Shown: piece after piece, positions 14,389 through 36,272 of the stretch
Position numbering within the stretch: position 1 is the stretch's first letter
How the letters are laid out: every line of letters begins with the position of its first letter
Assembly (NCBI GenBank): GCA_026397315.1
Contig: JAPLVC010000002.1
Location: 27,184 to 91,183, forward strand
Direction of reading: 5' to 3'
Origin: Candidatus Aenigmatarchaeota archaeon
GTDB lineage: Archaea; Aenigmatarchaeota; Aenigmatarchaeia; QMZP01; QMZT01
DNA: 64,000 bases
The notes under the pieces: model-generated
The model's input: the letters and a program-made list of their open reading frames with translations, nothing else
The model's database searches: none
Told to the model about the DNA's origin: nothing
Translations under genes and position numbers: made by a program

Positions 14389-14508
14389 TGGGCCGGGCAG
14401 GAATCGAACCTGCGGCCTTCGCGTTGTAAGCGCGACGTCATCTGCGGAACTTTTCCGTAAACGCTTTTGCGCGCACGCAAAAGGGTTTAACCGCTAGACT
14501 ACCGGCCC
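14389..14508 (-). tRNA. tRNA-Val(TAC) with 47-nt D-loop intron
   Basis: GGGCCGG/CCGGCCC acceptor stem, TCGCG-CTTACAA-CGCGA anticodon arm, GGTTCGATTCC T arm; CCA not encoded. Confidence 0.95.
14442..14488 (-). other. Non-canonical tRNA intron (D-loop, about 20a/21) with BHB motif
   Basis: GCGG/CCGC central helix, TTA and AGA bulges, AAC/GTT outer helix; excision restores GCGGTTATGAC. Confidence 0.88.
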
Positions 14509-14532
14509 GATAAAACCAATATTATATTCAAT

Positions 14533-15720
14533 TTATATAAGTTTCATCTCTTTGCCTACTTTTTTGTAGACGTCGAGAGCGAACTGCAGGTCCTCCGTCG
14601 TGTGTTCAGCGGTCACGATGTTCCTTATGCGCGCGGCGTCTTTAGCGACCAGCGGGAAGACTATCGGCTTGGCGAAAATGCCGTGCTCGAAAAGCGTCCT
14701 GCTCAGTTTCTGCGCGGTCGCGCTTTCGCCTACGATAACCGGTGTTATGGGAGTCTGGCTGTGGCCGATGTTGAAACCGAGATCGCGCAATCCCTCCTTG
14801 AAGAACTTCGTGTTCTCCCATAAGCGTTTGAGATGCTGCGGCTCGTCCTGCACAATCTTCAGCGCTTCCATTATCGCTCCCGTGACGCATGGCGGGTGCG
14901 CCGTGGTGAAGATGAATGAGCGCGATCTGTTAATCAGGTAGTCTCTCAGCTCTTGACGACCAGCGATATAGCCTCCTAAACAACCGAACGCCTTGGAAAG
15001 CGTGCCCATGTCGATGTCGACTCTGCCGTGAAGATTGAAGTGATCCACGATGCCGCGGCCGTCCTTGCCGAGCACACCATCGCCGTGCGCGTCGTCGACC
15101 ATGGTTATGGCGTCGTATTTCTCCGCAAGCTCGACTATCTGGTCCAGCGGAGCGATATCTCCATCCATGCTGAAGACGCCGTCAGTCACGACAAGCCGGC
15201 GTTTCGCGGACTGTGTCTCTTTCAGCGCCTTCTCAAGACCTTCCATATTCATGTGCGGGTAAATCTTCTTCTCCGACTTCGTCAGTCGCACGCCATCGAT
15301 TATGCTGCCGTGGTTCAGTTCATCGCTTATTATCGCGTCGCCCTCGCCCATGAGGACCTGTATCGTCCCGCGGTTCGCCGCGATGCCGGCGACGAAGATA
15401 AGCGACGCTTCAGTATGTTTGTATTTGGCGAGCATCTCTTCGGCCTCGTTGTGTATCTCCATGGTCCCGGCTATCTGGCGGACCGCTCCTGTTCCGAAGC
15501 CCCACTTGTCCATCGCTTTCTTCGCAGCCGCGGCGAGCCTCGGGTGGTTGGCGAAGCCGAGGTAGTTGTTCGTCGAAAGCGTAATCACTTTCTTGCCGTT
15601 GAGAGTGACGTGCGCGCCCTGCGGGCTGGTAAGCACCGGCAGCGTGGTGAAAAGATTCTCGCTTTTCAGTTTCTCCACTTCCTCCTTTAGAAAATGCAAC
15701 CTGTTCTTATGGTCTGTCAT
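14533..15720 (-). CDS. kbl: Glycine C-acetyltransferase (2-amino-3-ketobutyrate CoA ligase)
   Basis: NNYLG, SDELNHGSIIDG, TDGVFSMDGD, DDAHG, GTLSKA; GGAGGTG RBS upstream. Confidence 0.92.
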   Translation of the reverse strand: MTDHKNRLHFLKEEVEKLKSENLFTTLPVLTSPQGAHVTLNGKKVITLSTNNYLGFANHPRLAAAAKKAMDKWGFGTGAVRQIAGTMEIHNEAEEMLAKYKHTEASLIFVAGIAANRGTIQVLMGEGDAIISDELNHGSIIDGVRLTKSEKKIYPHMNMEGLEKALKETQSAKRRLVVTDGVFSMDGDIAPLDQIVELAEKYDAITMVDDAHGDGVLGKDGRGIVDHFNLHGRVDIDMGTLSKAFGCLGGYIAGRQELRDYLINRSRSFIFTTAHPPCVTGAIMEALKIVQDEPQHLKRLWENTKFFKEGLRDLGFNIGHSQTPITPVIVGESATAQKLSRTLFEHGIFAKPIVFPLVAKDAARIRNIVTAEHTTEDLQFALDVYKKVGKEMKLI

Positions 15721-15913
15721 CAAAACACCTCCGTAAACCTGAGAATAATAATTTCATTCATGGTATTAAAAAGGTGACGCTCCATTCGCTAGCGCCGCAA
15801 AAAATGTCAGCATCGATAAATTTGCATATATTTTACGGTTGTAAAACGTCTGATTATTTAAACGTGCTTCAACATAAATATAATTATAAGAAAAATTTTA
15901 AAATCGCGGTAAC

Positions 15914-17203
15914 ATGGAAAGGAAAAAATTTCTTTTTGTCTCGATAGACGCGCTCATAGGCGACATAGCTTGGCAGGTTGTCAAGGAAGGCCACGAGGCT
16001 AAATATTTCATCGAAACGCCCAGCGAAAAAGAGATTGCGGACGGCTTCGTGCCGAAATGCAACGACTGGAAAAAAGAGGTGGACTGGGCGGACGTCATAG
16101 TTTTCGACGACGTGCTCGGCCAGGGGACGCACGCCCAGAAGCTCAGGCAGGAAGGCAAGCTCGTCGTCGGAGGAACGCCTTACACAGACATGCTCGAGGA
16201 CGACCGCGGCTTCGGCCAGGAAGAACTCAAGAAGGCGGGCGTCACTACGATTCCCAGCTGGAACTTCACTTCTTTCGACGATGCCATAGCCTTCGTCCAG
16301 GAGCATCCCGGTAAATACGTCATCAAGCCGAGCGGCGAGGCGCAGAACATCAAGCAGCTGCTGTTCGTCGGCGAAGAGGACGATGGCAGGGACGTCATCC
16401 AGGTCCTTGAGCACTACAAGAAAGCGTGGTCCGACCGCATCAAGGTCTTCCAGCTCCAGCGCAAGATCTCGGGCGTCGAAGTCGCAGTAGGCGCTTTCTT
16501 CAACGGCAGGGAATTCATCTACCCGATAAACGTCAATTTCGAGCACAAGAAGCTTTTTCCGGGTAACATCGGACCGAGCACGGGCGAGATGGGCACGACC
16601 ATGTTCTGGTCCATGCCCAACAAGATTTTCAACGCCACCCTCAAGAAGATGGAGCCGAAGCTCAAGGAGGAAGGGTATGTCGGCTACATAGACATCAACT
16701 GCATAGTCAACAGCTACGGCATATATCCACTCGAGTTCACTTCGAGATTCGGCTACCCGACCATAAGCATACAACAGGAGTCGATGATAACACCCATAGG
16801 TCAGTTCCTGCACGAGATAGCCAAGGGCAACGGCACCAAGTTCAAGGTGAGGAGCGGCTTCCAGGCCGGCGTGCGCGTCGTGACCTCGCCGTTCCCGTTC
16901 ACGGACACGGAGACTTTCGAGACGAATTCCAAGGACGCGGTCGTGGTCCTGAAGAAGCCCAACATGGAAGGCATACACATCGAGGACGTCAAGCTGGTGA
17001 ACGGCGAGTGGCTAATCTCCGGACATTCCGGAGTCGTGCTGATAGTCGTGGGCATGGGCTCTACCATGAGGCAGGCCCAGAACCAGGTCTACAACAGGAT
17101 AAGCAACATACTCATACCCAACATGTATTACAGGACGGACATCGGCGACCGATGGGTCGAGGACAGCGACAAGCTGCACGCATGGAGCTACCTCAGGGAG
17201 TAA
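15914..17203 (+). CDS. PurD-like ATP-grasp ligase (divergent)
   Basis: LEDDRGF, YVIKP, FEHKKLFPGNIGPSTGEMG, LEFTSRFGYP, YYRTDIG; lacks the N-terminal GxGGREH motif. Confidence 0.75.
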   Translation: MERKKFLFVSIDALIGDIAWQVVKEGHEAKYFIETPSEKEIADGFVPKCNDWKKEVDWADVIVFDDVLGQGTHAQKLRQEGKLVVGGTPYTDMLEDDRGFGQEELKKAGVTTIPSWNFTSFDDAIAFVQEHPGKYVIKPSGEAQNIKQLLFVGEEDDGRDVIQVLEHYKKAWSDRIKVFQLQRKISGVEVAVGAFFNGREFIYPINVNFEHKKLFPGNIGPSTGEMGTTMFWSMPNKIFNATLKKMEPKLKEEGYVGYIDINCIVNSYGIYPLEFTSRFGYPTISIQQESMITPIGQFLHEIAKGNGTKFKVRSGFQAGVRVVTSPFPFTDTETFETNSKDAVVVLKKPNMEGIHIEDVKLVNGEWLISGHSGVVLIVVGMGSTMRQAQNQVYNRISNILIPNMYYRTDIGDRWVEDSDKLHAWSYLRE

Positions 17204-17229
17204 CCAGAGCAGCTTTTCGAAAAATATTT

Positions 17230-17820
17230 TTATTCTTTGTATTCCAGCCCGAACCTGAAAGCCTTTATGTCTTTTTCAGGGTCTTTGGGCACGGTTCTCT
17301 TTATGGCCTCGATTATAGATTCCTTCTTCAGCGGCAGCATGCCGCTAGCGACGGCGAGCCCGAGCATCATCGTGTTGCCGTCGAGCGGGTCGCCGAGCTT
17401 CTGGTCGCATATGTGCGACGCGTCGATGAAGACGAAGTTCTTGGCGAAAGGCGAAATCATCTGTTTTATTTTTTCGTAGGTCGGGTATTCCTTGTCGAAG
17501 AGATTCGCGTAGACGGGCTTGACCGGGTAGGTGTCGACGATGAAGTTCGTCCTGTCCTTGTGCGCGAAGTAGCAGAATCTCGCCGCCTCGAGCGGCTCCA
17601 GGGCGAATATCAGGTCGGCCTGCGCCCTCGGGATGAGCGGCGAATCGACGGCCTTGCCGAACCTCACGTGAGTCGGAATCGCTCCTCCGCGCTGCGCCAG
17701 GCCGTGCAGCTGCGTGCCACGAACATCGAAGCCCTCGAAGTTAGCGGCCCTGGCCACGATTACCGAAGTGAACAATACTCCTTCGCCTCCGACGCCTGCT
17801 ATGAGAACATTATACGTCAT
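17230..17820 (-). CDS. iorB: Indolepyruvate:ferredoxin oxidoreductase beta subunit
   Basis: AGVGGEG, HGLAQRGG, LEPLEAAR; overlaps the iorA stop. Confidence 0.9.
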   Translation of the reverse strand: MTYNVLIAGVGGEGVLFTSVIVARAANFEGFDVRGTQLHGLAQRGGAIPTHVRFGKAVDSPLIPRAQADLIFALEPLEAARFCYFAHKDRTNFIVDTYPVKPVYANLFDKEYPTYEKIKQMISPFAKNFVFIDASHICDQKLGDPLDGNTMMLGLAVASGMLPLKKESIIEAIKRTVPKDPEKDIKAFRFGLEYKE

Positions 17821-19681
17821 TCTTTTTCCTCCTGGCAGCCGGGATTATCGCCCCGACCGGACAGACCTGCGCGCAGACGCCGCAGCCCCAGCAAAGGTCC
17901 TCGCGTATGTATACTTTATCGCCCTCGTGCATGATGGCAGGGCACGCGAACTGCTTGACGCACGTCAGGCATTTCTTACACTTGCCCGGCGCGACCTGGA
18001 ACTTCGAGAACTCGCCGCCCTGCTTCCTTAACAGGCGGCGCATGTAAAGCCTGCAGAGCCCGCGGGATATTATGACGCCCAGCTTGTCGGATGCAGACAT
18101 CTCCTTTATCGCGGCCTGCAATTCCTTCTGGCTGAACGCGTTGACGATCTTGATGTTGGCGATGCCGAATGACCTGACGACGTCCTCGATTTTTATCGGC
18201 TCCTTTTTGTCGCCCATGCCGGTGAAATCGCTTCCCGGATGGGGCTGGTGGCCGGTCATCGCAGTCACGCCGTTGTCGAGGATGACTATGATGGGCTTGG
18301 TGCCGTGGGCGACCGAGTTCACTAGCGGCGGCATGCCTGCGTGGAAGAATGTCGAGTCGCCGATGAAGACGACGACTTTCTGGTCGCTCACCTTCTGGAT
18401 GCCGTGCGCCAGGCCGATGCTCGAGCCCATTGAAACTATGAAGTCCTCCATCTTGTACGGCTCCTGTATGCCTAGGACGTAACATCCGATGTCGCCAGAC
18501 CATACGGTCTGGTCACCCATCACTTTCTTTACTGCGTAGAAGGTCGACCTGTGCGGGCAGCCGGGGCAAAGCACCGCTTTCCTCGCTGGCAGGTCTATTT
18601 TCTTAAGATAAGCTTCGTGCATCGAGAAGTCGGGCTTCTTCGCCTTGAGGAACGGAGCTAGTGCCGATTGTATCGTCTCGGGATTGTATTCGCCGATGCG
18701 GGACAGAATGTCTTTGCCGTGTATCTCCGTGCGCGGGTTCACGTCCTTCGCGAGCGCGCGCACGAACTGCTCGACTACTGGTTCGAGTTCTTCGAGAACG
18801 AACACCCTATCGAGACCTTTCAGAAACTTGGTGACGAAGCTTCTGGAAATCGGGTACGTCATGACGAGCTTCGCTATCTTCACCCCTTTCAGGCCGTTGA
18901 GGTCTTTCTTTACTTCTTTCAGATACTGGTAGGAAACTCCGCTAGTTATTATGCCAATCTTCCCTTCGCCTTCAATCCTGTTGAGATAATCATAAGCCAG
19001 TTCTATCGTGTCTATCTTCTTGTTGAGGCGTTCGTGGAGTTGCTGCAGCGCCGGCGGCAAACAGTAGAAGCTTTCAGGGTCCTTGACGAAATTACCTTTG
19101 GTTTTCGGCTGCGGAATTTTGCCGAGCTTGACCGTTCCAATAGAATGCGAGACCATCGTAGTCGTCCTCAGCATGACGGGAATCCTGTGCTTCTCGGAAA
19201 TCTCGAAAGCAAGTTTCGTTAAATCCTTGCATTCCTGCGCGTTCGTTGGCTCGAGCGTCGGGATGAGGCCCATCCTTGCATAGAAGCGCGTGTCCTGCTC
19301 GGACTGCGCGGAACTGTGACCCAGCGGGTCGTCGGAGACCATTATGACCAGACCGCCTTTAACGCCCGTGTAAATAGTCGGCATCACAGAATCAATCGCG
19401 ACATTGAGACCGAAGTGCTTCATCGCCGTGAGCGCGCGCACGCCGGAAAACGCGGCTCCGGCCGCGACTTCGTAAGCGACTTTCTCGTTCGTGCTCCACT
19501 CGAAATAGAATCCTGCTTGTTTGGCAATGGCAGAAAGCGCGATGCCGACTTCGGAGCTGGGCGTTCCCGGGTAGCATGCGGACAATCCCATGCCCGCCTC
19601 TATAGCGCCACGGGCGATTGCTTCATTCCCCAGAAGAACGACCTTCTTCCCTTCCTTTTCCATCAAGTCCGGGTTCGCCAT
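17810..19681 (-). CDS. iorA: Indolepyruvate:ferredoxin oxidoreductase alpha subunit
   Basis: LGNEAIARG, YPGTPSSE, LCPGCPHR, GDIGCY, GDSTFFH, two C-terminal 4Fe-4S motifs. Confidence 0.95.
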   Translation of the reverse strand: MANPDLMEKEGKKVVLLGNEAIARGAIEAGMGLSACYPGTPSSEVGIALSAIAKQAGFYFEWSTNEKVAYEVAAGAAFSGVRALTAMKHFGLNVAIDSVMPTIYTGVKGGLVIMVSDDPLGHSSAQSEQDTRFYARMGLIPTLEPTNAQECKDLTKLAFEISEKHRIPVMLRTTTMVSHSIGTVKLGKIPQPKTKGNFVKDPESFYCLPPALQQLHERLNKKIDTIELAYDYLNRIEGEGKIGIITSGVSYQYLKEVKKDLNGLKGVKIAKLVMTYPISRSFVTKFLKGLDRVFVLEELEPVVEQFVRALAKDVNPRTEIHGKDILSRIGEYNPETIQSALAPFLKAKKPDFSMHEAYLKKIDLPARKAVLCPGCPHRSTFYAVKKVMGDQTVWSGDIGCYVLGIQEPYKMEDFIVSMGSSIGLAHGIQKVSDQKVVVFIGDSTFFHAGMPPLVNSVAHGTKPIIVILDNGVTAMTGHQPHPGSDFTGMGDKKEPIKIEDVVRSFGIANIKIVNAFSQKELQAAIKEMSASDKLGVIISRGLCRLYMRRLLRKQGGEFSKFQVAPGKCKKCLTCVKQFACPAIMHEGDKVYIREDLCWGCGVCAQVCPVGAIIPAARRKKNDV

Positions 19682-19863
19682 ACAAACCGCCTAACCCCAA
19701 AACCAAAAGCCAGGAGCCACCCCAAGGCCCCAAACCCTCAGCAAGATTTCGATTATTATTGCTTTATGACTTTCGTGTCGAATCCTCGATAATCTCCGAT
19801 ATAATATATTGAACAGAACCAGTTAAATATATTGTAAGTCTCGAATGTTCAAGAGGTGGTGTC

Positions 19864-20457
19864 ATGAAAAATCAAATCAAACATCAGGACAAACGGCAAA
19901 ACAATGATTCCGATGATTTTCTGAAAGTCATTCACGGCAGGAAAAGCGTGCGTAACTACACGGGCGCGCCTGTCAGCAATGACGACATCGAAGACCTTTT
20001 GCGCGCAGGCATGGCCGCGCCGAGCGCGGTCGACAGGCGGCCATGGTCTTTCATCGCCGTGACCGAGCGGGAGACGCTGGACAGACTATCGAAAGCGACG
20101 CCGTTCAGCGGCATGCTGAAGAAGGCCGGCGCTGCTGTAATCGTGTGCGGCATTCCCATGAAATCGCTGGTGAAGATGAAGCTCATCAACCTCGTCGCTG
20201 GCGTTTCGAACGATTACTGGGTGCAGGACTGCTCGGCTGCCACAGAAAATATACTATTAGCAGCCGAGGCAAAGGGGCTTGGCGCGGTATGGATAGGCAT
20301 ACATCCCGTAGAAGCTAAAGTAGAAACTGTCAGGAAAATTCTCAACATCCCGGACAACGTCACGCCGCTGAACATCATATCAATCGGCCATCCGCTAGGG
20401 ACGGAAAAACCGAAGAACAAGTTCGACGAGAACAATATCCACTGGGAGCATTGGTAG
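19864..20457 (+). CDS. Nitroreductase family protein
   Basis: RKSVRNY, APSA..RPWSF, ENILLAAEAKGLGAVW; GAGGTG RBS. Confidence 0.9.
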   Translation: MKNQIKHQDKRQNNDSDDFLKVIHGRKSVRNYTGAPVSNDDIEDLLRAGMAAPSAVDRRPWSFIAVTERETLDRLSKATPFSGMLKKAGAAVIVCGIPMKSLVKMKLINLVAGVSNDYWVQDCSAATENILLAAEAKGLGAVWIGIHPVEAKVETVRKILNIPDNVTPLNIISIGHPLGTEKPKNKFDENNIHWEHW

Positions 20458-20461
20458 TGAT

Positions 20462-20595
20462 TCACGGTATTATCTCGCAGCCGTTGTATATGACGTGCTC
20501 GAAACGTGCGTTTCCTCCATGTCGTCCAGCGGCTTATGGTAACAGTATTCACACTTCCCGTTGCACGCGGTCGTAAGTATCACGTGATAGAACAT
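20462..20595 (-). pseudogene. Internally deleted radical SAM gene remnant
   Basis: ATG at 20595 gives MFYHVILTTACNGKCEYCY (CxxxCxxC) and stops after 41 aa; another frame ends FEHVIYNGCEIIP*. Confidence 0.7.
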
Positions 20596-20631
20596 ATTCT
20601 GTGGGTGTTTCAATGAAATAAAAATATATAT

Positions 20632-21102
20632 TCAGGCCGTTTCGGGTTGCTGTGAAAGTCGCCTTAATTCTTTCCTCGTTTTCCTCGCGTTCTTTACCAC
20701 ACGATCGGCTATCGGGCACGGTGTCTCTCGCTGGTTGTTCTTCCATTCCAGCCTGTTGTATATCTCTTCTCCCGCTTCGTCCCGGATAATAAGAACAAAA
20801 TCCCTGTTGTTTTCACTTTTGTCTTGCTGTGTATAGTCCCAGTGAACTATGTGGTAATGTGCCGCTCTTCCGCTCTCGTCGAGTTCCCCGATGTAGAAAA
20901 AATCCCTGGAAGGCTCGAACATCAGCGTGGCGGTTTCCGTCTTTAGTTTTCCGAGGTTGTTCCTGCTGACGGTTATTTTTTTGCCCACATACTTTTCCAG
21001 CATGTCTGAAGGATATATTTTTCCAGCTTGTGACGCGGGCTCTTCTATATATCCATTCTTTCCGAAGATGCCTCTGAAAATCTTTAGTGGTTTATACATC
21101 AA
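20632..21102 (-). CDS. Hypothetical protein
   Basis: 156 aa ORF with upstream TTTAAATA box. Confidence 0.55.
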   Translation of the reverse strand: MMYKPLKIFRGIFGKNGYIEEPASQAGKIYPSDMLEKYVGKKITVSRNNLGKLKTETATLMFEPSRDFFYIGELDESGRAAHYHIVHWDYTQQDKSENNRDFVLIIRDEAGEEIYNRLEWKNNQRETPCPIADRVVKNARKTRKELRRLSQQPETA

Positions 21103-21196
21103 TTAAAAGTTTTTTTCTATATTTAAATACCAAGCCTTTCCACAAATTGCACCAAATTTTATAGTGATTTTACGGATTTTTCAGAAAAATAACTAA

Positions 21197-21224
21197 ATAT
21201 TTATATATTTAAATAAACAAATAT
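21197..21224. promoter_or_regulatory. Imperfect 28-bp palindrome, probable ArsR operator overlapping the promoter
   Basis: ATATTTATATATTT|AAATAAACAAATAT (2 mismatches) directly upstream of arsR; AT-rich context lowers significance. Confidence 0.5.
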
Positions 21225-21230
21225 GTTTAC

Positions 21231-21488
21231 ATGGATAATGTTGTGGTTTTCAGGGCGCTTGCCGACCCCACGCGGCTGAAGATACTCGAATTGCTCAGGA
21301 GCGGTGAGAGATGCGCATGCGAACTCCCTTCGAAAGTGGGAAAGTCACAGCCCAACGTTTCGCTGCACCTCAAGATACTGAAAGACGCCGGCATAATTTC
21401 CAGCAGGAAAGACGGCAAGAAAATAATATATTCGGCCACTAAATCTGAAATTTACAAGATAATAGAAAGAGCGAAAAACATAAAGTGA
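21231..21488 (+). CDS. ArsR/SmtB family transcriptional repressor
   Basis: FRALADPTRLKIL, ERCACEL metal site, SQPNVSLHLKIL. Confidence 0.92.
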   Translation: MDNVVVFRALADPTRLKILELLRSGERCACELPSKVGKSQPNVSLHLKILKDAGIISSRKDGKKIIYSATKSEIYKIIERAKNIK

Positions 21489-21497
21489 AGTGATTGC

Positions 21498-22607
21498 ATG
21501 GAAAACCGGAATGTTTTCATTATTTTGGTTGTCGTATTTCTGGCGCTATATTTCATGCCTGTCGGCTCGCAGCTTTTCGACGGCGCCATACTCAGCGCTT
21601 TCTCGCTGCTCCACGAATACGCGACGCAGCACGTGATAACGTGCCTCATTCCTGCGATGTTCATAGCGGGCGCGATTTCAGTTTTCATCAAAAAAGACGC
21701 CGTCATCAAATACATGGGGCCGTCCGCGAAAAAATACGTCTCATATACCATCGCCTCGGTGTCGGGAGCGATACTCGCGGTCTGCTCGTGCACCGTCCTT
21801 CCGCTATTCGCCAGCATACGCAAGCGCGGAGCGGGCCTGGGGCCTGCCATAGCATTTCTCTATTCCGGTCCGGCGATAAACATAACGGCAATGTTTCTCA
21901 CCATAAGCGTGCTCGGGGTGCAGATAGGGATTGCCAGAATCGTAGCATCCATTTCGCTGTCAATACTGGTGGGTCTGACCATGGCCTTCATTTTCAAGGA
22001 AAAGTCCGGCACCGGCAAGTGGAAGCTCAAAAAGACCAAGGCGAAACCTGATTCGAAGCTTTTCGTCTCGCTTCTTTTCGTGTCGCTCGTAGGCGTGCTC
22101 CTGGTGAACGGGCTGCAAATCAATTTGCCGGTTAAGTATTCCATGATGGCCGCGCTTTCCGTGGCCGCGGCGCTAGTTGGTATTTTTGGCATGCAGAGGC
22201 GGTCGTCAGAGGAATGGCTGGGGCACACGTGGTTCTACGCCAGGAAGCTCATACCGCTGCTTTTCATAGGCGTCTTCATAGCAGGCGTGGTCATGTTCCT
22301 CGTACCCGACGAATTCATCAGGTCGGTCGCTGGCGAGAACACCATCATGAGCAACGTCGCCGTCTCGATATTCGGCGCTTTCATGTATTTTTCGACGCTC
22401 ACGGAAATACCGATACTGCAGGCGCTCATAGCGAAAGGGATGCATCCCGGTCCCGCCCTAACGCTACTGCTTTCCGGCCCGGCCCTTAGCCTGCCGAGCA
22501 TGCTCGCGATAAGGGAGTTCCTCGGCAACAGGAAAACGATAGCCTATGTCTTATTGGTAATATTATATTCTGCCGCGGCGGGCCTTGTTTTCGGAATGCT
22601 TGTATAG
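21498..22607 (+). CDS. ArsP/DUF318 family permease
   Basis: LAVCSCTVLPLF, FLYSGPAIN, FMYFSTLTEIP, GPALSLP. Confidence 0.88.
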   Translation: MENRNVFIILVVVFLALYFMPVGSQLFDGAILSAFSLLHEYATQHVITCLIPAMFIAGAISVFIKKDAVIKYMGPSAKKYVSYTIASVSGAILAVCSCTVLPLFASIRKRGAGLGPAIAFLYSGPAINITAMFLTISVLGVQIGIARIVASISLSILVGLTMAFIFKEKSGTGKWKLKKTKAKPDSKLFVSLLFVSLVGVLLVNGLQINLPVKYSMMAALSVAAALVGIFGMQRRSSEEWLGHTWFYARKLIPLLFIGVFIAGVVMFLVPDEFIRSVAGENTIMSNVAVSIFGAFMYFSTLTEIPILQALIAKGMHPGPALTLLLSGPALSLPSMLAIREFLGNRKTIAYVLLVILYSAAAGLVFGMLV

Positions 22608-28360: not shown

Positions 28361-28468
28361 ACCGAATCACCATTTCTTTACCGTTAAAACTTGCAGGATT
28401 TTTATCTTATTTTTCCTGAAGATACTTTGCAGAAACAGACTAGTAAAGTAAATCTTTTCCAAGATTAA

Positions 28469-28591
28469 TGCGCCGACCGGGATTTGAACCCGGGTTAGAG
28501 GCTTTTTCCATCAGTGGTTGCCGGATGCATCGAAACCCGCTGGGGTTTTGATTTGGGAAGCCCCTGTCCTACCAGGCTAGACTATCGGCGC
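28469..28591 (-). tRNA. tRNA-Gly(CCC) with 50-nt canonical 37/38 intron (28504-28553)
   Basis: GCGCCGA/TCGGCGC acceptor stem; BHB with TTCC/GGAA helix, CAA and AAA bulges, ATCA/TGAT outer helix. Confidence 0.95.
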
Positions 28592-28749: not shown

Positions 28750-29124
28750 TTATTTTTTTCTTTTCAGTTCAGGGCTTATCAGGAGAAGGACTGCTCCTAT
28801 GAGCTCCGGTGCGCCGATGGGCGGAAGGAATGCTGATATGAGTGCGTATATGGCCACTCCCTGGTAATCCTTTGCCTTGAATTTGCCAAGGCCTTTCCAA
28901 AGGACTATCATGCCCGCTATTGCTAGCAGGCCGAAAGCGGTCAAAGCTCCTGCCAGGACCCATGTGAAAGGTGCTATTCCGAGAGTCATGCTGACATTCG
29001 TCACCGGCACAAGGCCGCCGAATATCACTATTATGCCGACTAATTTCAGCAGCAGACCCACGAGAATAAGGACCTTCGCTATCGTCGCTTCGGTACTCAA
29101 CCCTTTGAAGTTGATGTCTATCAT
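28750..29124 (-). CDS. Small hydrophobic membrane protein
   Basis: 124 aa, 3-4 TM segments. Confidence 0.7.
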   Translation of the reverse strand: MIDINFKGLSTEATIAKVLILVGLLLKLVGIIVIFGGLVPVTNVSMTLGIAPFTWVLAGALTAFGLLAIAGMIVLWKGLGKFKAKDYQGVAIYALISAFLPPIGAPELIGAVLLLISPELKRKK

Positions 29125-29208
29125 ATTATATAATTCCCCCGATTCCCCTAATAAATCAAAAACAGTCGCTTGCTGACGTTTATTAGCGGTTTTGGCAAAA
29201 TAATCATT

Positions 29209-30252
29209 ATGAAAAAAATAAGTTTCGTTTTCGGCATATCCCTTGTTTTTGTTGTTTTTTTGTCAGGTTGCATCAACGTCAGCCCAGAAGCGCTAGCGAT
29301 GGCGAACCCTCTGGTGAAACAGTTCATGGAACAATATCCAAATGCGAAAATAACCGTGAACCATTTCACCAAGGACCAGAGCGCCCAGATACTTGAGAAC
29401 ATAAGCGCTGAATGCGGCAACCCATACATAACCGCGAAAGAGTTTTACAGGATAAGCATCGACGACCCGGACAGCGGGCTAAAAGCGTTAGCTTGGATTG
29501 ACTGGGAAACCAGGGGAATAGAATGTGCCGTGAAATATGGCGGCGGCCTGAACAAGACGATATCCAAGCCCGGCGAAGAAAACCAGGACTGCAAGTCTCA
29601 CGCTGAGATGAAATGCTACGGCGAGCATGTATATTGGTTCGATTCGTGTGGCCACAAGGAAGAGAAGAAAGAATACTGCACATCCGGTTGCGAGAACGGC
29701 TTCTGCAAAACCAAGGAAGGCTGCACTGAGCATGCTGAGGCGAAATGTGCCGACGGGCACGTGTACTGGTATGACAGCTGCAACGGCAAGGAAGACAAAA
29801 AAGAGTACTGCCAGAACGGCTGCGAGAACGGCGCATGCAAAGGCGGCACGGAAAAGACCTGCTTAAACGAAGGGGAAAGCAAACCCGTCATCGCGAACCC
29901 GCTGCCATGCTGCGAAGGCCTGACACTAATCCCTCCGAAGGCGGAAAACCTGGTAGGCATATACGGATACTGCACCGCGAAATGCGGCAACGGCATTTGC
30001 AATGAAATCGAGACCGCATACAACTGCCCGTCAGACTGCGGCAATATCAATTGCACAGACTCCGACGGCGGCAGGAACTATTCCGTGAAAGGGACGGCGA
30101 CAGTTGCCGGCCAGTCGCTCACGGACCATTGCAACGAAGACGGTTCGCTTACCGAGAAATACTGCGAGAACAACGAGATAAAAGCCGAGTCAGTCTCCTG
30201 CCCGACAGGCTTCAAGTGCGACGACGCGAAGTGCGTGGAAGAAACAGTATAA
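29209..30252 (+). CDS. Cys-rich secreted lipoprotein with repeated disulfide modules
   Basis: MKK signal plus LSGC lipobox; two C..HAE.KC...HVYW.DSC..KE.KKEYC..GCENG.CK repeats; CGNGIC and CTDSDGG modules. Confidence 0.85.
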   Translation: MKKISFVFGISLVFVVFLSGCINVSPEALAMANPLVKQFMEQYPNAKITVNHFTKDQSAQILENISAECGNPYITAKEFYRISIDDPDSGLKALAWIDWETRGIECAVKYGGGLNKTISKPGEENQDCKSHAEMKCYGEHVYWFDSCGHKEEKKEYCTSGCENGFCKTKEGCTEHAEAKCADGHVYWYDSCNGKEDKKEYCQNGCENGACKGGTEKTCLNEGESKPVIANPLPCCEGLTLIPPKAENLVGIYGYCTAKCGNGICNEIETAYNCPSDCGNINCTDSDGGRNYSVKGTATVAGQSLTDHCNEDGSLTEKYCENNEIKAESVSCPTGFKCDDAKCVEETV

Positions 30253-30262
30253 AAAAGAGAAA

Positions 30263-30346
30263 CGCTGAGAGCAAGACTCGAACTTGCGCGGGCTATTCAC
30301 CCACAGGGTTAGCAACCCTGCGCCTTGACCGCTCGGCCATCTCAGC
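30263..30346 (-). tRNA. tRNA-Ser(GCT), intronless
   Basis: GCTGAGA/TCTCAGC acceptor stem, CAGGG-TTGCTAA-CCCTG, long variable arm, G73. Confidence 0.95.
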
Positions 30347-30986
30347 AGATTAATATTTCGTCCGCACTTATTTCAGCGAACTTTTTTTGTTTTGCATTAT
30401 TATGTGGGTTTATCTCTTTAAAAAATCTTTCCATGTTCTTTCTGCCGGCCATGCGTATTTTCAGGTTGCTTTTTTCGAGCCAGAAATGAAAATCAAGGTC
30501 GCGCAGGATCTCCTTGAGCTGCATAAGGTGCGCGAGCGACGGGCTGGAGATTTCTAATATGGGATTCCTGTATTCCCCGGACGTGCGGCGTAGGTAGAGC
30601 GAGCCGCTCGAGTCGAACATACCCCTCACATACGCCTTCCAGTATTCGTGGTTGTTGAAAATCAGCTTCGGCATGCGGAGCGCGTGCGCCTTCCTGCCTA
30701 TAGGGAACTGGAGATACGTATGGAAAGTCTTCACCGCCCGCCCGCCGCACGCGCGGATGCAGATCACGTATCCGTCCTGATATTTCCTTTTGACGAGCTT
30801 TAGCTCCCTGCCGAAAATCTTTTCAAAGAGCGGTTTTACGTGGCTTCGATAATATTGCATTTCATCCTTCGTGCTCCTGATTTCCAGGATGTAGCTTCTA
30901 GCGGTTGCATAGATGCTGCCGTCGCCCGCGAATATGCCGCACGCCTCGCCCAGCGTGTCCTTGTTGAGCGAAAGTAATTCAAACAT
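30342..30986 (-). CDS. Free-standing two-motif LAGLIDADG endonuclease-like protein
   Basis: CGIFAGDGS and YVRGMFDSSGS motifs; no intein or intron context. Confidence 0.8.
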   Translation of the reverse strand: MFELLSLNKDTLGEACGIFAGDGSIYATARSYILEIRSTKDEMQYYRSHVKPLFEKIFGRELKLVKRKYQDGYVICIRACGGRAVKTFHTYLQFPIGRKAHALRMPKLIFNNHEYWKAYVRGMFDSSGSLYLRRTSGEYRNPILEISSPSLAHLMQLKEILRDLDFHFWLEKSNLKIRMAGRKNMERFFKEINPHNNAKQKKFAEISADEILIC

Positions 30987-31106
30987 AATTGTTATTTGCG
31001 GGTCATGGTTTAAATATCCGCGCCTTAAAGTCACAAACTTTATAAAGCCACCGGATGAATTAAATAACAGATAAATTTTTCAGAAAATCGATTGAGAGGT
31101 GGGTAT

Positions 31107-31409
31107 ATGGCAATAAAAGTTTCGAGCATTTCCGAGACGTACGGCAAGGACGTTTTCACGAACAGGGGTATGTTCTGCGGAAAAGTCGAGGATATCGAGT
31201 GCGACCTCAAGCGCTTCAAGGTTCGCTCACTGGTCGTGCGTGCTGCAAAGGAGTCTTACATATCCAAGATGCTCGGCAGCAAGAAGGGCGTTATCATCCC
31301 GTTCCCAATGGTAGAATCCATAGGCGACGTGATACTGATAAAGCACATCTCGCTTCCGGTCGCGGATGAAGAGCCCGCAAAAGAGGGCGCTGCGTCAGAA
31401 TCTGAATAA
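31107..31409 (+). CDS. PRC-barrel domain protein (possibly CdpB-like cell division factor)
   Basis: YGKDVFTNRG...GKVEDI, IIPFPMVESIGDVILIK; GAGGTG RBS. Confidence 0.85.
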   Translation: MAIKVSSISETYGKDVFTNRGMFCGKVEDIECDLKRFKVRSLVVRAAKESYISKMLGSKKGVIIPFPMVESIGDVILIKHISLPVADEEPAKEGAASESE

Positions 31410-31438
31410 ATCCCGATAAAAAAGAAAAATTTCGCAGT

Positions 31439-32464
31439 TTAGAATATAGGGATATCCTTGGACAGGACTTCTGTCCTCTTCTTCTTTATTAAAATCACGT
31501 CTTCAAGCCTTACGCCTCCGATACCTTTTATGTAAACGCCCGGCTCTATGGTCATTACAGTGTTTTCCGCGAGCGTCTCGCCCTGCGGCTCGTGGACGGA
31601 AAGTCCCAGCCCGTGGCCGAGGCCGTGCAATACCGTGTAGCTTTTTTTCGCGTAAAGTTTTTTCTGGAGATCTTCCAGCTCGCTGTAAGTCACGCCCGCG
31701 CGTGCGGCGTATATGAGTTCGTCGTGTATCTGCTTGACGTCTTCGTATATCTTCTTCTGGACTGGGCCGAGTCTCGTGAAAAACATGCGCGTTATGTCTG
31801 AGCAATAGCAGTCGACGATACATCCCGTGTCTATGAGGACCGGGGCTTTCGCTTTCGCGAGCGTCTCGCCTGGCTTGTGGTGGACGAACGCAGCCTGTTT
31901 GCCTGCGCAGACGATGGACTCAAACGACTCGCTAGCACCGCGCTTCCTGTATTCTATCTCTATCGCGTCCGCGATCTGCTTTTCGCTGTTGCCCCATAGA
32001 AAGCCGCCGACGTTTTGTAAGACGTCTCCCGTCAGCCTTATCGCCTCTTTAATCTGCGCTATTTCAAACTCGTCCTTCTGGATGCGCGGGATTTCCATTA
32101 TCTTGCCGGCGGGCTCCAGCCTGGCCTTCAGTTTTTTCTTCATGGCCCTGAAAAGCAGGAGGCTTAGCGTCCGCTCGTCGTAGCCCATGCGCTTGAATCC
32201 GCCGAGCTGGCGGATGAAGTCGTCCTTGTCCCGGATGTATGTTATGTCAGGATATTTTGAGGCGGCATCGTTCTCAAGCGGCGAAACGAAAAGCTTCGGC
32301 CTGCCGCTGTCCTGGAAAAGCATGAAGATCCTGTCGTCCTTCAGGCCGGCATACCCAGTGTAATAGAACACGTCGTGCGGGTCGGAGGTTATTACCGCGT
32401 TCAGGCCGCTTTTCTGGACTAACGCTTTCAGTCGCCTTTGCCTCGCCGCGAAGTCTGGCTTCAT
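31439..32464 (-). CDS. Xaa-Pro peptidase (M24 family)
   Basis: IDTG, YCSDITR, HGLGHGLGLSVHE, TIEPGVY, VRLED. Confidence 0.92.
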   Translation of the reverse strand: MKPDFAARQRRLKALVQKSGLNAVITSDPHDVFYYTGYAGLKDDRIFMLFQDSGRPKLFVSPLENDAASKYPDITYIRDKDDFIRQLGGFKRMGYDERTLSLLLFRAMKKKLKARLEPAGKIMEIPRIQKDEFEIAQIKEAIRLTGDVLQNVGGFLWGNSEKQIADAIEIEYRKRGASESFESIVCAGKQAAFVHHKPGETLAKAKAPVLIDTGCIVDCYCSDITRMFFTRLGPVQKKIYEDVKQIHDELIYAARAGVTYSELEDLQKKLYAKKSYTVLHGLGHGLGLSVHEPQGETLAENTVMTIEPGVYIKGIGGVRLEDVILIKKKRTEVLSKDIPIF

Positions 32465-32562
32465 ATAATATTCTTGGTCCAAGCCCACTAAAAAAGCATA
32501 GCGGATGCATAAAGCTTAAATTACATTAATTGAAGATATTATAATCCTTAACGTGGTGCCTC

Positions 32563-33387
32563 ATGAATTACAGCGTTCCTGATATGAAAAAGCTCGCTAC
32601 CGAGATAAGAAAGGACATAATCAGGATGACGTGCGAAGCCGGTAGCGGACACCCTGGCGGCTCTCTTTCTTCCGTGGAAATAATGGTTTCCCTTTACTTC
32701 AATGTCATGAAGCACGACCCGAAAAACCAGGCTTGGGACGACCGTGACCGCTTCGTGCTTTCGAAAGGGCATGTCTGCCCTGTTCTTTACGCTTCTCTCG
32801 CCAGACGAGGATACTTCCCGCCGGAAGAGTTGATGACTCTCAGGAAGTTCGGCTCGCGGCTGCAAGGGCATCCGCACAGGCTCAAGCTTAGCTGCCTCGA
32901 GACTTCTTCAGGTTCGCTGGGCCAGGGCCTTTCCATCGCAAGCGGGATGGCAATCGGCCTGCGCATGGACAAGAAAAGCCCGCGCGTCTACTGCCTGATG
33001 GGCGACGGCGAGTTGCAGGAAGGCCAGGTGTGGGAAGCCGCGATGACCGGCGCTCACTACAAGCTGGACAACCTCTGCGGCATCGTCGATGTCAATGGCC
33101 TGCAGATAGACGGCAGGACCAGCGACGTGAAGAACCTGGAGCCGCTCGCGGACAAGTGGAAGGCGTTCGGCTGGCATACTATCGAAGTGGATGGTCACAA
33201 CGTCGAGGCGCTTATCAGCGCGTTCCGCGAGGCTGAGCGGACGAAGGGAAAGCCCACGGTCATACTTGCAAAGACAGTCAAAGGCAAGGGCGTCTCCTTC
33301 ATGGAAAACAAAGCCGAATGGCACGGCAAGCCGCCCAGCAAAGAAGAAGCCGCGAAAGCACTGAAAGAACTTGGAGAGACATGCTGA
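32563..33387 (+). CDS. Transketolase N-terminal subunit
   Basis: GHPGGSLS, RDRFVLSKGH, GSLGQG, GDGELQEG. Confidence 0.95.
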   Translation: MNYSVPDMKKLATEIRKDIIRMTCEAGSGHPGGSLSSVEIMVSLYFNVMKHDPKNQAWDDRDRFVLSKGHVCPVLYASLARRGYFPPEELMTLRKFGSRLQGHPHRLKLSCLETSSGSLGQGLSIASGMAIGLRMDKKSPRVYCLMGDGELQEGQVWEAAMTGAHYKLDNLCGIVDVNGLQIDGRTSDVKNLEPLADKWKAFGWHTIEVDGHNVEALISAFREAERTKGKPTVILAKTVKGKGVSFMENKAEWHGKPPSKEEAAKALKELGETC

Positions 33388-33398
33388 AGTGATGTTTT

Positions 33399-34403
33399 AT
33401 GACAGAAAAAAAATCCGGATTGAACGAGACGCTGCACCTAGCTCCTAATATTTACGATAAGGTCGAGAAGATACCCACGAGGAACGGCTTCGGCCACGGA
33501 CTAGTCGAACTGGGCCACGCGAACAAGAACGTCGTCGCCCTTTGCGCCGACCTTTCCGATTCGACGCGCGCGCTCTGGTTTGCCGAGAAATTTCCCGACA
33601 GGTTCATAGAAGTCGGCATTTCGGAGCAGGACATGATGGGCATCGCTGCGGGTCTCGCCGCCGTAGGCAAAATACCATTCCTAAGCACATACGGCGTCTT
33701 TTCGACAGGACGCGCGTGGGACCAGATGAGGACGACGGTCGCATACGGCGATTTCAATGTAAAAATCGCGAGTGCGCACGGCGGCATCTCGGTAGGCGCG
33801 GACGGCGCGACGCACCAGTCTCTGGAGGAGATCGCTTTGTCCCGCGTGCTGCCCAACATGAAAGTCATAGTGCCCGCGGACTACTGGGAGTCGAAGAAGG
33901 CGACTATCGCTTCCGCCTCGATTCATGGCCCCATAGTCATACGCTTCGGCCGCGAAAAAGTGCCGGTCATAACTACGGAGAAGACGCCGTTCGTTTTCGG
34001 GAAAGCCGAAACGTTCAGGTTCGGGAACGACGTCACAGTCTTCGCGTGCGGCCCGATGGTTTACGAGGCGCTCATTGCCGCGAAGGAACTTGAAAAGAAA
34101 GGCATTGACGTGCGCGTGGTCAACATGCACACGGTCAAGCCGCTCGACGAGAAGGCGATAATAGACGCGGCGAAAGAGACGGGCGCGATAGTCACGGCCG
34201 AAGAGCACCAGGTCAACGCGGGCTTCGGCTCTGCAATCGCGGAAGTCGTGGTCGAGCACTATCCGGTGCCCATGAAACGCGTAGGTGTGATAGACCGCTT
34301 CGGCGAGTCGGGCGAGCCGGACCAGCTCATGGTGGAATTCAATCTCAAGAGCACGGACATAATAAAGGCGATAGAGGACGTGCTCAGCCGCAAGAAAAAA
34401 TAA
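33399..34403 (+). CDS. Transketolase C-terminal subunit
   Basis: ADL..ST, GISEQDM, DGATHQ, VTAEEH. Confidence 0.95.
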   Translation: MTEKKSGLNETLHLAPNIYDKVEKIPTRNGFGHGLVELGHANKNVVALCADLSDSTRALWFAEKFPDRFIEVGISEQDMMGIAAGLAAVGKIPFLSTYGVFSTGRAWDQMRTTVAYGDFNVKIASAHGGISVGADGATHQSLEEIALSRVLPNMKVIVPADYWESKKATIASASIHGPIVIRFGREKVPVITTEKTPFVFGKAETFRFGNDVTVFACGPMVYEALIAAKELEKKGIDVRVVNMHTVKPLDEKAIIDAAKETGAIVTAEEHQVNAGFGSAIAEVVVEHYPVPMKRVGVIDRFGESGEPDQLMVEFNLKSTDIIKAIEDVLSRKKK

Positions 34404-34440
34404 TCTTTTCGTGGATGCAACATGATTAAAAGGGATTCTT

Positions 34441-35691
34441 ATGGGCACTAATGCGAGAATAGCTGAAAGGATGTCGAGGCTTGGAACCGAAACGGCGTTT
34501 TCCGTTTCTCTCGAAGCACGGGAGTTTGCGTGCAAGGGCAAAAAAATCTATCCTTTTCATCTCGGCGACATGAACATCAGGACACCCAAGAAGATTATTG
34601 ATGCGGCTAGGAAAGCTATGGAAGACGGCAAAACAGGCTACTGCCCCAGTGCAGGCATCCCAGAACTCAGGGAGGCGCTGGCCAAAGACATGAGCAGCTC
34701 GCGCGGCATAAAGCTCACGGCGAAAAACGTATCGATACAGATGGGCGGCAAGCCAGTAATAATGAAGTTCGTCATGGCTTTCATGAATCCGGGGGACGAG
34801 GTGCTGTACCCGAATCCCGGATACCCGATTTACGAGTCGCAGATCCGCTTCCACGGAGGTATAGTGAAACCTTACGGTTTCAAGATGATTGACAAGGGCT
34901 TCAGCTTGGACATGGAACAGCTCGAGACGCTTGTCACACCGAAGACCAAACTGTTCATATTCAACAACTATCACAACCCTATGGGCGCGGAATCCGACCC
35001 GTTGGAGATGAAGAGAATCGCCGATTTCTGCAAAAGGCACGACCTGCTCGTGCTGAGCGACGAGGCGTATTTCGACATCACATACGACGGCAAGCCCAAG
35101 AGCATAGTTTCCTACCCAGGCATGGCCGAGCGCACGCTGATACTTTACACGTTCTCCAAGAAGTTCGCCATGACGGGCTGGCGGCTTGGGGCGGCTGTAG
35201 GGCCGGAATGGATGATAGAGCAGATTAACCGCCTGAACGTGAATGACGAGTCGTGTTCGAACCACTTCATCCAGTGGGCCGCTGTCGAGGCGCTCAAAAA
35301 CACGCAGAAGGAAACGCAACAGATACTCGACACACTGAAAAAACGCAGGGACCTTGCGTGCAAGATGCTCAGCACCATAAAGGGCATCAGAGTTTTCAAG
35401 CCCAACTCGACTTTCTACATCTTCCCGGACGTGACCGAGGCGATGCGCAACCTGGGTTTCAACGACGTCGAAAAGTTCAGGAGGTTCATACTGGAGACGA
35501 CGGGCGTATCCTTCTGCACGCGACGCCATTTCGGGACGCCGCTGGATGACGAGAAGCACGAGTTCATCCGCCTCGCTTATTCCGGCATCGACCTGAAGGA
35601 CATCAGGGAAGGCCTGGCGAAGATGAAAAGCGCGATTGAGAACCCGGAAATTTCAAAAAGATGGGTTTCCGAAAAAAGCACAAAGCCTTGA
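34441..35691 (+). CDS. Class I/II PLP aminotransferase (aspartate aminotransferase-like)
   Basis: NNYHNPMG, SDEAY, TFSKKFAMTGWRLG. Confidence 0.9.
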   Translation: MGTNARIAERMSRLGTETAFSVSLEAREFACKGKKIYPFHLGDMNIRTPKKIIDAARKAMEDGKTGYCPSAGIPELREALAKDMSSSRGIKLTAKNVSIQMGGKPVIMKFVMAFMNPGDEVLYPNPGYPIYESQIRFHGGIVKPYGFKMIDKGFSLDMEQLETLVTPKTKLFIFNNYHNPMGAESDPLEMKRIADFCKRHDLLVLSDEAYFDITYDGKPKSIVSYPGMAERTLILYTFSKKFAMTGWRLGAAVGPEWMIEQINRLNVNDESCSNHFIQWAAVEALKNTQKETQQILDTLKKRRDLACKMLSTIKGIRVFKPNSTFYIFPDVTEAMRNLGFNDVEKFRRFILETTGVSFCTRRHFGTPLDDEKHEFIRLAYSGIDLKDIREGLAKMKSAIENPEISKRWVSEKSTKP

Positions 35692-35879
35692 ACTGGGCAT
35701 GAAAGCAATGGAGAACAACAAGATCCCTTAAATCCGATTTTTAATTCATGATCGAAGAATCAATTATTACCCCATTTTTTTTGTAAAATCTAAAATAAAT
35801 ACAAATAGATAGCGTAGATGTTTTACTTGGTCCATTTTTTTATAGGCGGTTATGCCAGTATCAACATTCCCAAGAAGTA

Positions 35880-36116
35880 ATGAAATTCGATATAAATAAA
35901 TATGGTGAAAATATCGTAAAGAAAAAATTCGAGATGGAAATAGAAATCCCTAACAATTCGGAAGCCGAGTTCAACCAGATAATGGAATGGGTCAGGGACA
36001 AGAGCCACAACGACAGGTGGAAGTTCGTGAAGAGAGCCTCGGCCAACAACGATTTCCTGATGTGGAAGCTGAAGAAGAAGATGGCTGCGATCAAACCCGG
36101 CTTGGCAAAAATCTGA
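35880..36116 (+). CDS. Small hypothetical protein
   Basis: 78 aa ORF with coding-like 3' half; start uncertain. Confidence 0.5.
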   Translation: MKFDINKYGENIVKKKFEMEIEIPNNSEAEFNQIMEWVRDKSHNDRWKFVKRASANNDFLMWKLKKKMAAIKPGLAKI

Positions 36117-36220
36117 ACCCGGCCCATGCTTTTTATTTTACTATTATCTCTAGCGTAGCCTTTTGACCAAAGCTTCGCCAATCATTTTAGCGTGCAAAAA
36201 AACCAATGGGGCCGCTGGGA

Positions 36221-36272
36221 TTCTCAAAGCCATTTTCCGCAAACGCTTTTGCGCGAGGCGGAAAAGGGTTTA
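36221..36272 (-). other. 52-nt T-loop intron (59/60) of tRNA-Pro
   Basis: BHB: TTCA/TGAG helix, two AAT bulges, CTGGG/CCCAG T-stem as flanking helix. Confidence 0.85.

Follow-up and report, generated by a model that had tools for sequence, protein, structure and literature searches.

Fujishima et al. (2010, Mol Biol Evol) are said to have described sequence-related ('transposed') tRNA introns in Thermoproteales. Small palindromic interspersed repeats include the bacterial repetitive extragenic palindromic (REP) sequences and bacterial interspersed mosaic elements (BIME) with their REP-associated tyrosine transposases (RAYT), the Rickettsia palindromic elements and the miniature inverted-repeat transposable elements (MITEs). 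In the accessible text of two papers (PMC4090602, PMC3239211), related introns at different positions of different Thermoproteales tRNAs are read as recent gains, and the first of these, a review, regards the way in which introns transpose as unknown. A 2026 census of Asgard tRNA genes identified no general arrival route (bioRxiv 10.64898/2026.10.13.758758). In ARMAN-2, the accessible part of PMC3239211 describes an intron at position 59/60 of tRNA-Pro(GGG) together with a splicing endonuclease (EndA) of the epsilon2 type. Here, we analysed a window of 64,000 nucleotides from Candidatus Aenigmatarchaeota archaeon (assembly GCA_026397315.1, contig JAPLVC010000002.1), in which one hairpin element forms the core of an intron in tRNA-Val and of another in tRNA-Pro. 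The source genome (1.05 Mb) is called G000 and the same-genus genomes are G001-G004; coordinates are window positions. We consider, with a probability of about 0.6, that both introns are copies of a small, copy-prone hairpin repeat that is widespread in archaea and whose insertions into RNA genes persist where they can be spliced out.

The locus was compared with each of these systems. As far as the accessible descriptions of the Thermoproteales introns go, both cases show similar introns in different isoacceptors at different positions, but the present element occurs in DPANN and other archaea, has a hairpin supported by covariation, crosses phyla and has copies in rRNA genes, in tRNA trailers and behind open reading frames (ORFs). 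ARMAN-2 shares the tRNA-Pro(GGG) host, the 59/60 T-loop site and the EndA type; the likeness concerns host, site and enzyme, and the part of its description at hand draws no link to a repeat family. The bacterial palindromic repeats are likewise short imperfect hairpins in many copies, patchily distributed, mostly behind genes and sometimes inside them. In contrast to those repeats, no Y1/RAYT-type transposase tracks the present element, which shows no terminal inverted repeats with target duplication, is restricted to archaea among the matches listed, and would be tolerated in RNA genes through protein-catalysed splicing. The short 16S introns of Thermoproteales, as described in the accessible part of PMC4496867, are also bulge-helix-bulge (BHB)-type insertions in archaeal rRNA genes, whereas the rRNA insertions here measure 54-76 nt, are free of ORFs and have the same core as the tRNA introns. 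Our literature search found no account of the hairpin family, of copies in rRNA or outside genes, or of its occurrence across phyla; supplementary intron tables might list related sequences. These three features are apparently new, while tRNA intron transposition was already known.

The tRNA-Val(TAC) gene (14389-14508, minus strand), read from the sequence, is 120 nt long with its intron and 73 nt without it, and has the anticodon loop CTTACAA. Exons 1 and 2 together equal the intron-less tRNA-Val of G004, base for base. The intron occupies 47 nt of the D-loop (14442-14488, minus; covariance model R1, E 6e-15), and the empty G004 allele sets its junction at GGTT/ATGAC, to within 1 nt owing to a repeated A. 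Its constant core (14451-14488, minus), delimited by alignments and with a hairpin supported by covariation, consists of the hairpin foot NNNCCC-TTTT, a variable tip, AAAA-GCG-NNN and then ACGGAAAA. In the tail (14442-14450, minus; read from the sequence), CCGC pairs with the exon GCGG (14491-14494), GTT pairs with the element's own AAC, and AG forms the 3' bulge; the minimum-energy RNAfold structure also has GCGG and CCGC paired. The tRNA-Pro(GGG) gene (36207-36366, minus; also a sequence reading) is 160 nt long with two introns, has the anticodon loop TTGGGGT and has orthologues in G001-G004. Its T-loop intron at position 59/60 spans 52 nt (36221-36272, minus; R1, E 2e-15), with the junction TTCAAA/T CCCAG set by the empty T-loops of G002 and G004, and similarity to other-tRNA contigs from four DNA runs stops exactly at 36272. 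The constant core (36233-36271, minus), defined by alignments, is followed by a tail (36221-36232, minus; sequence reading) in which TGAG pairs with the T-loop TTCA (36275-36278), GGCTT pairs with the element's AAACC (4/5), and AA forms the 3' bulge.

In the central 4 bp of the archaeal BHB, exon bases -6 to -3, counted back from the 5' cut, pair with intron bases -6 to -3, counted back from the 3' cut, a rule that we checked here against position 37/38 introns. Bulges of 3 nt and outer helices flank these pairs in the strict form, and one outer helix is weakened in the relaxed forms (hBH/HBh'). Both introns have a strict or relaxed BHB geometry. In tRNA-Pro, the central helix scores 4/4, the inner (intron-side) helix 4/5 and the T-stem 5/5; in tRNA-Val, the central helix scores 4/4 and the intron helix has 3 bp, and the exon-side helix is an irregular D-stem, which gives the relaxed form. 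A preliminary description of this DNA had taken the tails to be exon-complementary, target-derived adaptors. This stands for GCGG/CCGC and TTCA/TGAG, and the last 6 nt are indeed site-specific, but the preceding tail bases, GTT and GGCTT, pair with the 5' arm of the element itself.

The similarity of the two cores is far beyond chance. MAFFT alignment of 14451-14488 with 36233-36271 places one gap and leaves 34/39 columns identical, the same figure as a count by hand; both strings lie on the minus strand at the positions first reported for them. With blastn-short, the Val and Pro loci are joined at E 2e-4 in the 1.05-Mb genome. An nhmmer profile finds three loci at E 1e-13 to 4e-12, with the next, unrelated match at E 0.24, and covariance model R1 finds them at E 2e-15, 6e-15 and 2e-13, with the next match at E 0.003. 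A fixed-spacing pattern with 3 mismatches allowed had no match in the window because of the 1-nt indel. The third copy, found by blastn-short and R1, is a 52-nt D-loop intron of tRNA-Arg(TCG) (G000:C6:135516-135656), in which the exon CCGG and AT precede the cut and the intron ends in GGCTT-TCGG-AA. This tRNA also carries a 15-nt canonical intron, its anticodon loop is confirmed by the intron-less G002 orthologue, and the 'Lys' call of ARAGORN is an artefact of the introns. One genome therefore holds similar introns in the D-loop of tRNA-Val, the T-loop of tRNA-Pro and the D-loop of tRNA-Arg, the pattern of a transposed intron family. A fourth copy (G000:C7:152675-152718; model R2, E 4e-6) is intergenic, and relatives hold hundreds more.

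Empty and differently occupied alleles were sought in the genus and are present for tRNA-Val, tRNA-Pro and tRNA-Arg. In the tRNA-Val D-loop, G000 has the core intron, G003 a 100% identical core intron plus an extra intron elsewhere, and G002 a 45-nt core variant plus an unrelated T-loop intron; G004 is intron-less, and G001 has a different 17-nt insert and no core. The tRNA-Pro(GGG) T-loop contains the core intron in G000 and G003, is empty in G002 and G004, and contains a hairpin element of a second family in G001. In the D-loop of the same tRNA, G004 carries a 61-nt core intron and G000, G003 and G002 are empty, the G001 locus meeting a contig end. The tRNA-Arg D-loop carries the core intron in G000 and G004, an unrelated insert in G003, and nothing in G002 and G001. 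Thus, the occupancy of four sites varies among five congeners. Taking the introns out restores the RNA sequence, with the empty Val, Pro T-loop and Arg D-loop alleles matching the predicted junctions; since the empty alleles fix these junctions, they do not depend on the BHB rule alone. At the junctions so fixed, the central helix is paired 4/4 (G.U counted) in 5/6 distinct introns and 3/4 in the Arg intron of G004, against a chance of about 0.02 per site for 4/4 pairing. The EndA gene tree, a single-gene, midpoint-rooted tree, is (G000,G003),(G004,(G001,G002)); EndA is 95% identical between G000 and G003 and about 78% between G000 and the other congeners. Neither the Val nor the Arg pattern can be explained on this tree by fewer than two events, and the four sites together require six or more gains or losses. 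The early proposal of a constant hairpin with a site-fitted 3' end at unrelated tRNA positions agrees with these same-genus alleles and with the further copies.

The second hairpin family, which is related to the first, has a stem of AAGCC-TTTT...AAAA-GGCTT without mismatches, after which comes AAGCGAAAA. Its members stand immediately behind tRNA genes, for example 3' of tRNA-Arg (L001, about 30-65, G000:C6), and also in L032 and L192. In G001, it fills position 59/60 of tRNA-Pro (L051), where G000 has the family-1 core. The intergenic fourth copy of the first family adjoins a family-2 hairpin and a duplicated tRNA-Leu 3' end (G000:C7:152560-152860).

Within the phylum, R1 gave matches at E<=1 in 34/41 related genomes, and R2 gave matches at E<=1e-3 in 62/151 genomes, with 1-38 copies each. 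The distribution over families is patchy, with R2 matches in 0/10, 1/32 and 0/7 genomes of some families and in 13/14 and 9/11 of others. Contexts were read by eye for 53 matches (E<=3e-4) from 41 sources. Most lie in tRNA genes: 20 in the T-loop (mostly 59/60), 13 in the D-arm, five at position 37/38, and one each in the variable arm and the anticodon stem. The 16S and 23S rRNA genes hold four each, two lie directly behind a tRNA 3' end, two in tandem duplicates of tRNA 5' fragments, and one is unclear. All 48 intronic copies of this set are in sense orientation. Rfam searches bore out the rRNA hosts, as did BLAST comparison with the 16S of G000 (1439 nt), which has no insertions. The 16S of G007 has insertions of 70 and 71 nt at 336/337 and 715, both of which match the model, and in G018 and G033 there are model matches at about 612 and 344, among other mini-insertions. 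The core-bearing rRNA insertions are only 54-76 nt long and have no ORF, which differs from introns of the homing-endonuclease type. In the copy-rich G033, further matches lie in additional tRNA introns and in trailers (four copies), and one begins with the TAG stop of an ORF.

Several arrangements accompany these copies. The rRNA operon of G033 (L030, G033:C23:11000-21500) is heavily interrupted, with five 54-76-nt mini-insertions in 16S; its 16S measures 1798 nt against a model of 1478 positions, and its 23S 4251 nt against 2987. The trailer copies of G033 (L187, L189, L190, L192, L035, L036) are followed by about 150-200 nt of sequence shared between several loci, which may be a larger composite repeat. 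At L034 280-530 (G033:C3), a unit of the first 14 nt of a tRNA, the element and 6 nt stands twice in tandem before an intact, uninterrupted tRNA gene; the 14-nt repeats are a tandem duplication of the tRNA 5' fragment with the element, and the unit looks like a footprint of copying or recombination. Within single tRNA introns, tandem arrays of the core occur at L031 430-600, in L033 and at L135 7649-7837, with periods of about 41, 56 and 50 nt and up to four units.

Beyond the phylum, an exact core pattern of 23 fixed bases, for which about one chance match is expected in the contig collection, was found on at least 120 archaeal contigs; all 120 titled records among the matches listed are archaeal. 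They include Aenigmatarchaeota, Micrarchaeota, Iainarchaeum, Woese-, Pace-, Nano- and Parvarchaeota, Altiarchaeota and Hadarchaeum, as well as ANME-1/Methanophagales, Syntrophoarchaeum, Methanocellales, Methanosarcinales, Thermoplasmata, Halobacteriota and Methanobacteriota. Three viral (IMG/VR) contigs also carry the pattern (L180, L181, L182). The pan-archaeal set comprises 131 matches among the matches listed, to which the counts out of 131 refer. Of these, 30/131 open a tRNA intron called by ARAGORN, mostly near 37/38, and by eye many more lie in T-loops; a census by deletion and ARAGORN recovered a tRNA for 43/131, a lower bound given the crude choice of variants. At least six copies follow a called tRNA 3' end at a distance of 0-4 nt, one follows an RNase P RNA gene at a distance of 2 nt (L096 2648-3116, a Methanosarcinales record), and in ANME-1-type records the element lies 0-4 nt past a TAA stop codon. 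At least one intronic copy (L073) is apparently antisense within its tRNA intron. The preliminary picture of an element of tRNA introns therefore has to be widened, since copies also follow tRNA genes, an RNase P RNA gene and stop codons, interrupt rRNA genes and occur on viral contigs.

Two further layouts were noted in this set. In L182 and L171, the core is flanked on one side by a partial duplicate of a tRNA 3' end and on the other by the full tRNA gene on the opposite strand, which is the layout of an integration site. A 106-nt repeat (L116 2025-2130 and 6096-6201, and L150), with copies 99% identical, consists of the element, a TATA-like box and a gene start; here the element is part of a recurring intergenic cassette. 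Pfam gave no family for seven ORFs around the L116 repeat.

The hairpin of the element is strongly supported by covariation. Its foot comprises any Watson-Crick pair, then A:T, A:T, C:G, a C.C mismatch, C:G and four T:A pairs, after which come a freely variable tip that defines sub-types and a single-stranded, conserved RCGGAAA. In the 53-copy alignment, 95.5% of the hairpin cells are paired, compared with 87.6% after shuffling (0/500 shuffles reach the observed value) and 18-54% in slid registers. The outermost pair, which varies between A-U (32), G-C (9), U-A (7) and G-U (2) and is unpaired once, belongs to the outer four pairs that were absent from the model that produced this alignment. 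In the pan-archaeal set, the closing pair is Watson-Crick in 126/131 (shuffle mean 33, maximum 55), distributed over A:T (36), C:G (31), T:A (30) and G:C (29), and its 5' base lies outside the exact search pattern. The next position outward does not pair, with 26 observed against 29.5 expected among the 131, and the hairpin therefore ends exactly at the first base of the element. The 5' arm can pair either with the internal GCGNNN or with GGNNN in the tail; therefore, the hairpin and the intron-side helix of the BHB are mutually exclusive folds.

Other structural identities were considered for the core. A BHB within the core was rejected because CCC faces GCG as a symmetric loop and not as staggered bulges. 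The core CGGAA might serve as a T-loop 3' splice site, since CGGA can pair with TTCG, but this pairing is unused in the copies read. No motif of K-turns, C/D boxes, H/ACA RNAs, hammerheads or attC sites was seen by eye. A transcription terminator as the sole role fits the copies behind genes, but it explains neither the copies within tRNA and rRNA genes nor a conserved part without a T-run. Circular omega-RNAs (PMC12558985) and Rep-Arvir origins (PMC13107129), judged from the accessible parts of these papers, have no bearing on the element. Rfam 15 matched only tRNAs in the window, an E-value scan of 36190-36300 gave nothing relevant, and at eighteen extragenic loci no Rfam 15 family fell on the element.

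The C.C mismatch in the foot and the 3' RCGGAAA are near-invariant across phyla. Such constancy bears on the idea that the core is a selected functional RNA module, either a small RNA freed by tRNA-processing enzymes or a 3'-end or processing signal, that sits in cut-off parts. This idea gains from the very strong covariation of the hairpin, from the start of the element 0-4 nt downstream of where an RNA is processed or a gene ends (5' splice sites, 3' ends of tRNA and RNase P RNA, stop codons), and from the orthologous Arg copies of G000 and G004, which keep the foot and RCGGAAA while the tip and tail have diverged. We nevertheless regard it as unlikely. The element has no match in 89/151 genomes and is nearly missing from whole families, its copy number ranges from 1 to 38, its occupancy varies between species whose EndA is 95% identical, it forms tandem arrays inside introns, the L073 copy is apparently antisense, no Rfam family corresponds to it, and no C/D, H/ACA, K-turn or hammerhead signature was seen by eye. 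The terms selfish and neutral, which the preliminary description applied to the element, should be read as conditional, since the conserved foot and RCGGAAA leave a function possible.

The relations among copies cut across genomes and sites. Among the 53 copies, the best match of the G000 Pro T-loop core, at 95%, is a T-loop copy from G033, which belongs to another family; the Pro D-loop copy of G004 is closest to a Leu D-loop copy in G017, and the 16S copies are closest to tRNA copies of other genomes. In G035, a single hairpin sub-type occupies position 59/60 of two tRNAs as well as position 37/38 of tRNA-Ala. Sub-types common to several sites and genomes thus point to movement between sites, plus either old sub-families or transfer between genomes. 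That the introns are instead old and vertically inherited, with differential loss and some sliding, so that their similarity reflects ancient paralogy, appears highly improbable. Such inheritance would account for the 16S sites at about 337-344, about 612 and 715, which recur in G007, G018 and G033, and for the recurrent Leu D-loop (G017, G033) and Asp 37/38 (G005, G009) sites. It does not account well for cores 91-95% identical at different sites in different genomes, as for a 16S and a T-loop copy, for the difference in the Arg D-loop between the sister genomes G000 and G003, or for matches in distant phyla and on viral contigs. Because copies appear and disappear between close relatives and sub-types stand at different sites, we regard the element as copy-prone, that is, mobile in a broad sense.

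The candidate splicing enzyme is encoded in the window. EndA (7376-8563, minus) has 395 aa with Pfam PF01974 and PF02778, is the sole PF01974 match in the genome, and aligns along its whole length with PDB 4fz2_A (residues 6-395 on 9-387, E 3.3e-104). The 4FZ2 structure is the epsilon2 EndA of ARMAN-2, in which, according to the accessible part of PMC3488258, an extra loop confers cleavage of relaxed T-loop sites in vitro. By its sequence, the window EndA is a relative of the epsilon2 (three-unit) type and is predicted to have a broad, ARMAN-2-like specificity. It is present in all four congeners at 77-95% identity, and an RtcB ligase is encoded in G000. A 2018 paper, in its accessible part, knows the epsilon2 type only from Micrarchaeum and Mancarchaeum (PMC5829648); here it occurs in an Aenigmatarchaeota genome and all four of its congeners.

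With these enzymes, a spliceable insertion could be built as follows. The element would start 0-1 nt past the 5' splice site in a tRNA or rRNA gene, followed by a short 3' tail. The tail would first pair back to the element's own 5' arm, giving the intron-side helix; the next 4 nt would pair with the final exon bases ahead of the cut, giving the central helix, and two bulged nt would end the tail. The resulting strict or relaxed BHB should be cut and rejoined by the window EndA and the genome's RtcB, and insertions in essential RNA genes would survive only where splicing removes them.

Several observations weigh against a copy-prone, spliceable repeat. First, no mobilising enzyme was found. 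The Y1 transposase PF01797 occurs in 23/151 genomes (13/62 carriers of the element, 10/89 non-carriers) and the reverse transcriptase PF00078 in 20/151 (9/62 and 11/89), and neither was found in G000 or in the copy-rich G033, G035, G027, G030, G013 and G009, which are 89-93% complete. Neither the cognate Y1 (HUH) transposase of a REP/RAYT or IS200/IS605-derived hairpin repeat nor the reverse transcriptase of a retro-mobile element accompanies the element consistently in its carriers. Second, the four comparisons of filled and empty sites show no target-site duplication beyond the 1-nt ambiguity, nor the combination of terminal inverted repeats and duplication that marks MITEs. Third, gain and precise loss are indistinguishable, because only presence and absence are mapped on a single-gene, midpoint-rooted tree. 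Fourth, the nearest relative lies in the same genome for 11/53 cores (shuffle mean 4.4, maximum 14), and recent within-genome bursts are therefore not the main pattern. The 53 copies are also a biased sample, because they are the best matches per genome plus chosen clusters. Furthermore, the near-invariant foot, the C.C mismatch and RCGGAAA are no less compatible with a selected function than with selfish spread. Finally, what is observed comprises the family of sequences, its hairpin, the junctions, the varying occupancy and the two enzymes; that the introns are spliced out, whether sites were gained or lost, copying of DNA and selfishness are inferred.

Copying could also have taken place at the RNA level, with an excised intron ligated by RtcB into an EndA-cut, BHB-like site of another RNA and then copied into DNA. 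The 5' edge of the element at the splice site, the uniform sense orientation of the 48 intronic copies and the presence of EndA and RtcB all suit this route, and the universal T-loop TTCR would offer a common target at what is the commonest site (20/53). We consider it quite improbable nonetheless: the reverse transcriptase does not follow the element in the counts given above, the copies behind genes, after stop codons and in duplicated tRNA 5' fragments are not splicing products, and the L073 copy is apparently antisense. Returning to a hairpin repeat copied between sites, we raise tentatively, as a possibility short of probable, a broader form of it: a pan-archaeal, non-autonomous mobile element without an enzyme of its own, whose spread between phyla was possibly viral and from which many non-canonical tRNA introns and rRNA mini-introns derive. 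On that broader form, a BHB intron would arise when the repeat inserts into an RNA gene at a point where some tail bases are able to pair with the exon.

The element offers a recognisable sequence handle on the unsettled origin of archaeal tRNA introns. It combines features expected of a vehicle, with one hairpin inside tRNA and rRNA introns and outside genes, filled and empty alleles in sister genomes, and an endonuclease of predicted broad specificity nearby. Intron origin thereby becomes testable by census, by comparing sub-type phylogeny with the species tree and by cleavage assays. There is also a consequence for annotation, as standard tools missed or mis-called both the tRNA-Val and the tRNA-Pro gene. 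ARAGORN without intron mode called neither, Rfam recovered only the 3' two-thirds of tRNA-Val, and ARAGORN with intron mode mis-called tRNA-Val as tRNA-Ala. Two other intron-bearing tRNA genes were located in the window by Rfam (28469-28591, minus, 123 nt; 37919-38051, minus, 133 nt), and their inserts have no match to the core model. The second insert of tRNA-Pro (about 36305-36341, minus, roughly 33-37 nt), between the D-loop and the anticodon stem, is unrelated to the core and common to all five congeners. On one contig from run X2, 37 nt at this insert are replaced by 4 other letters.

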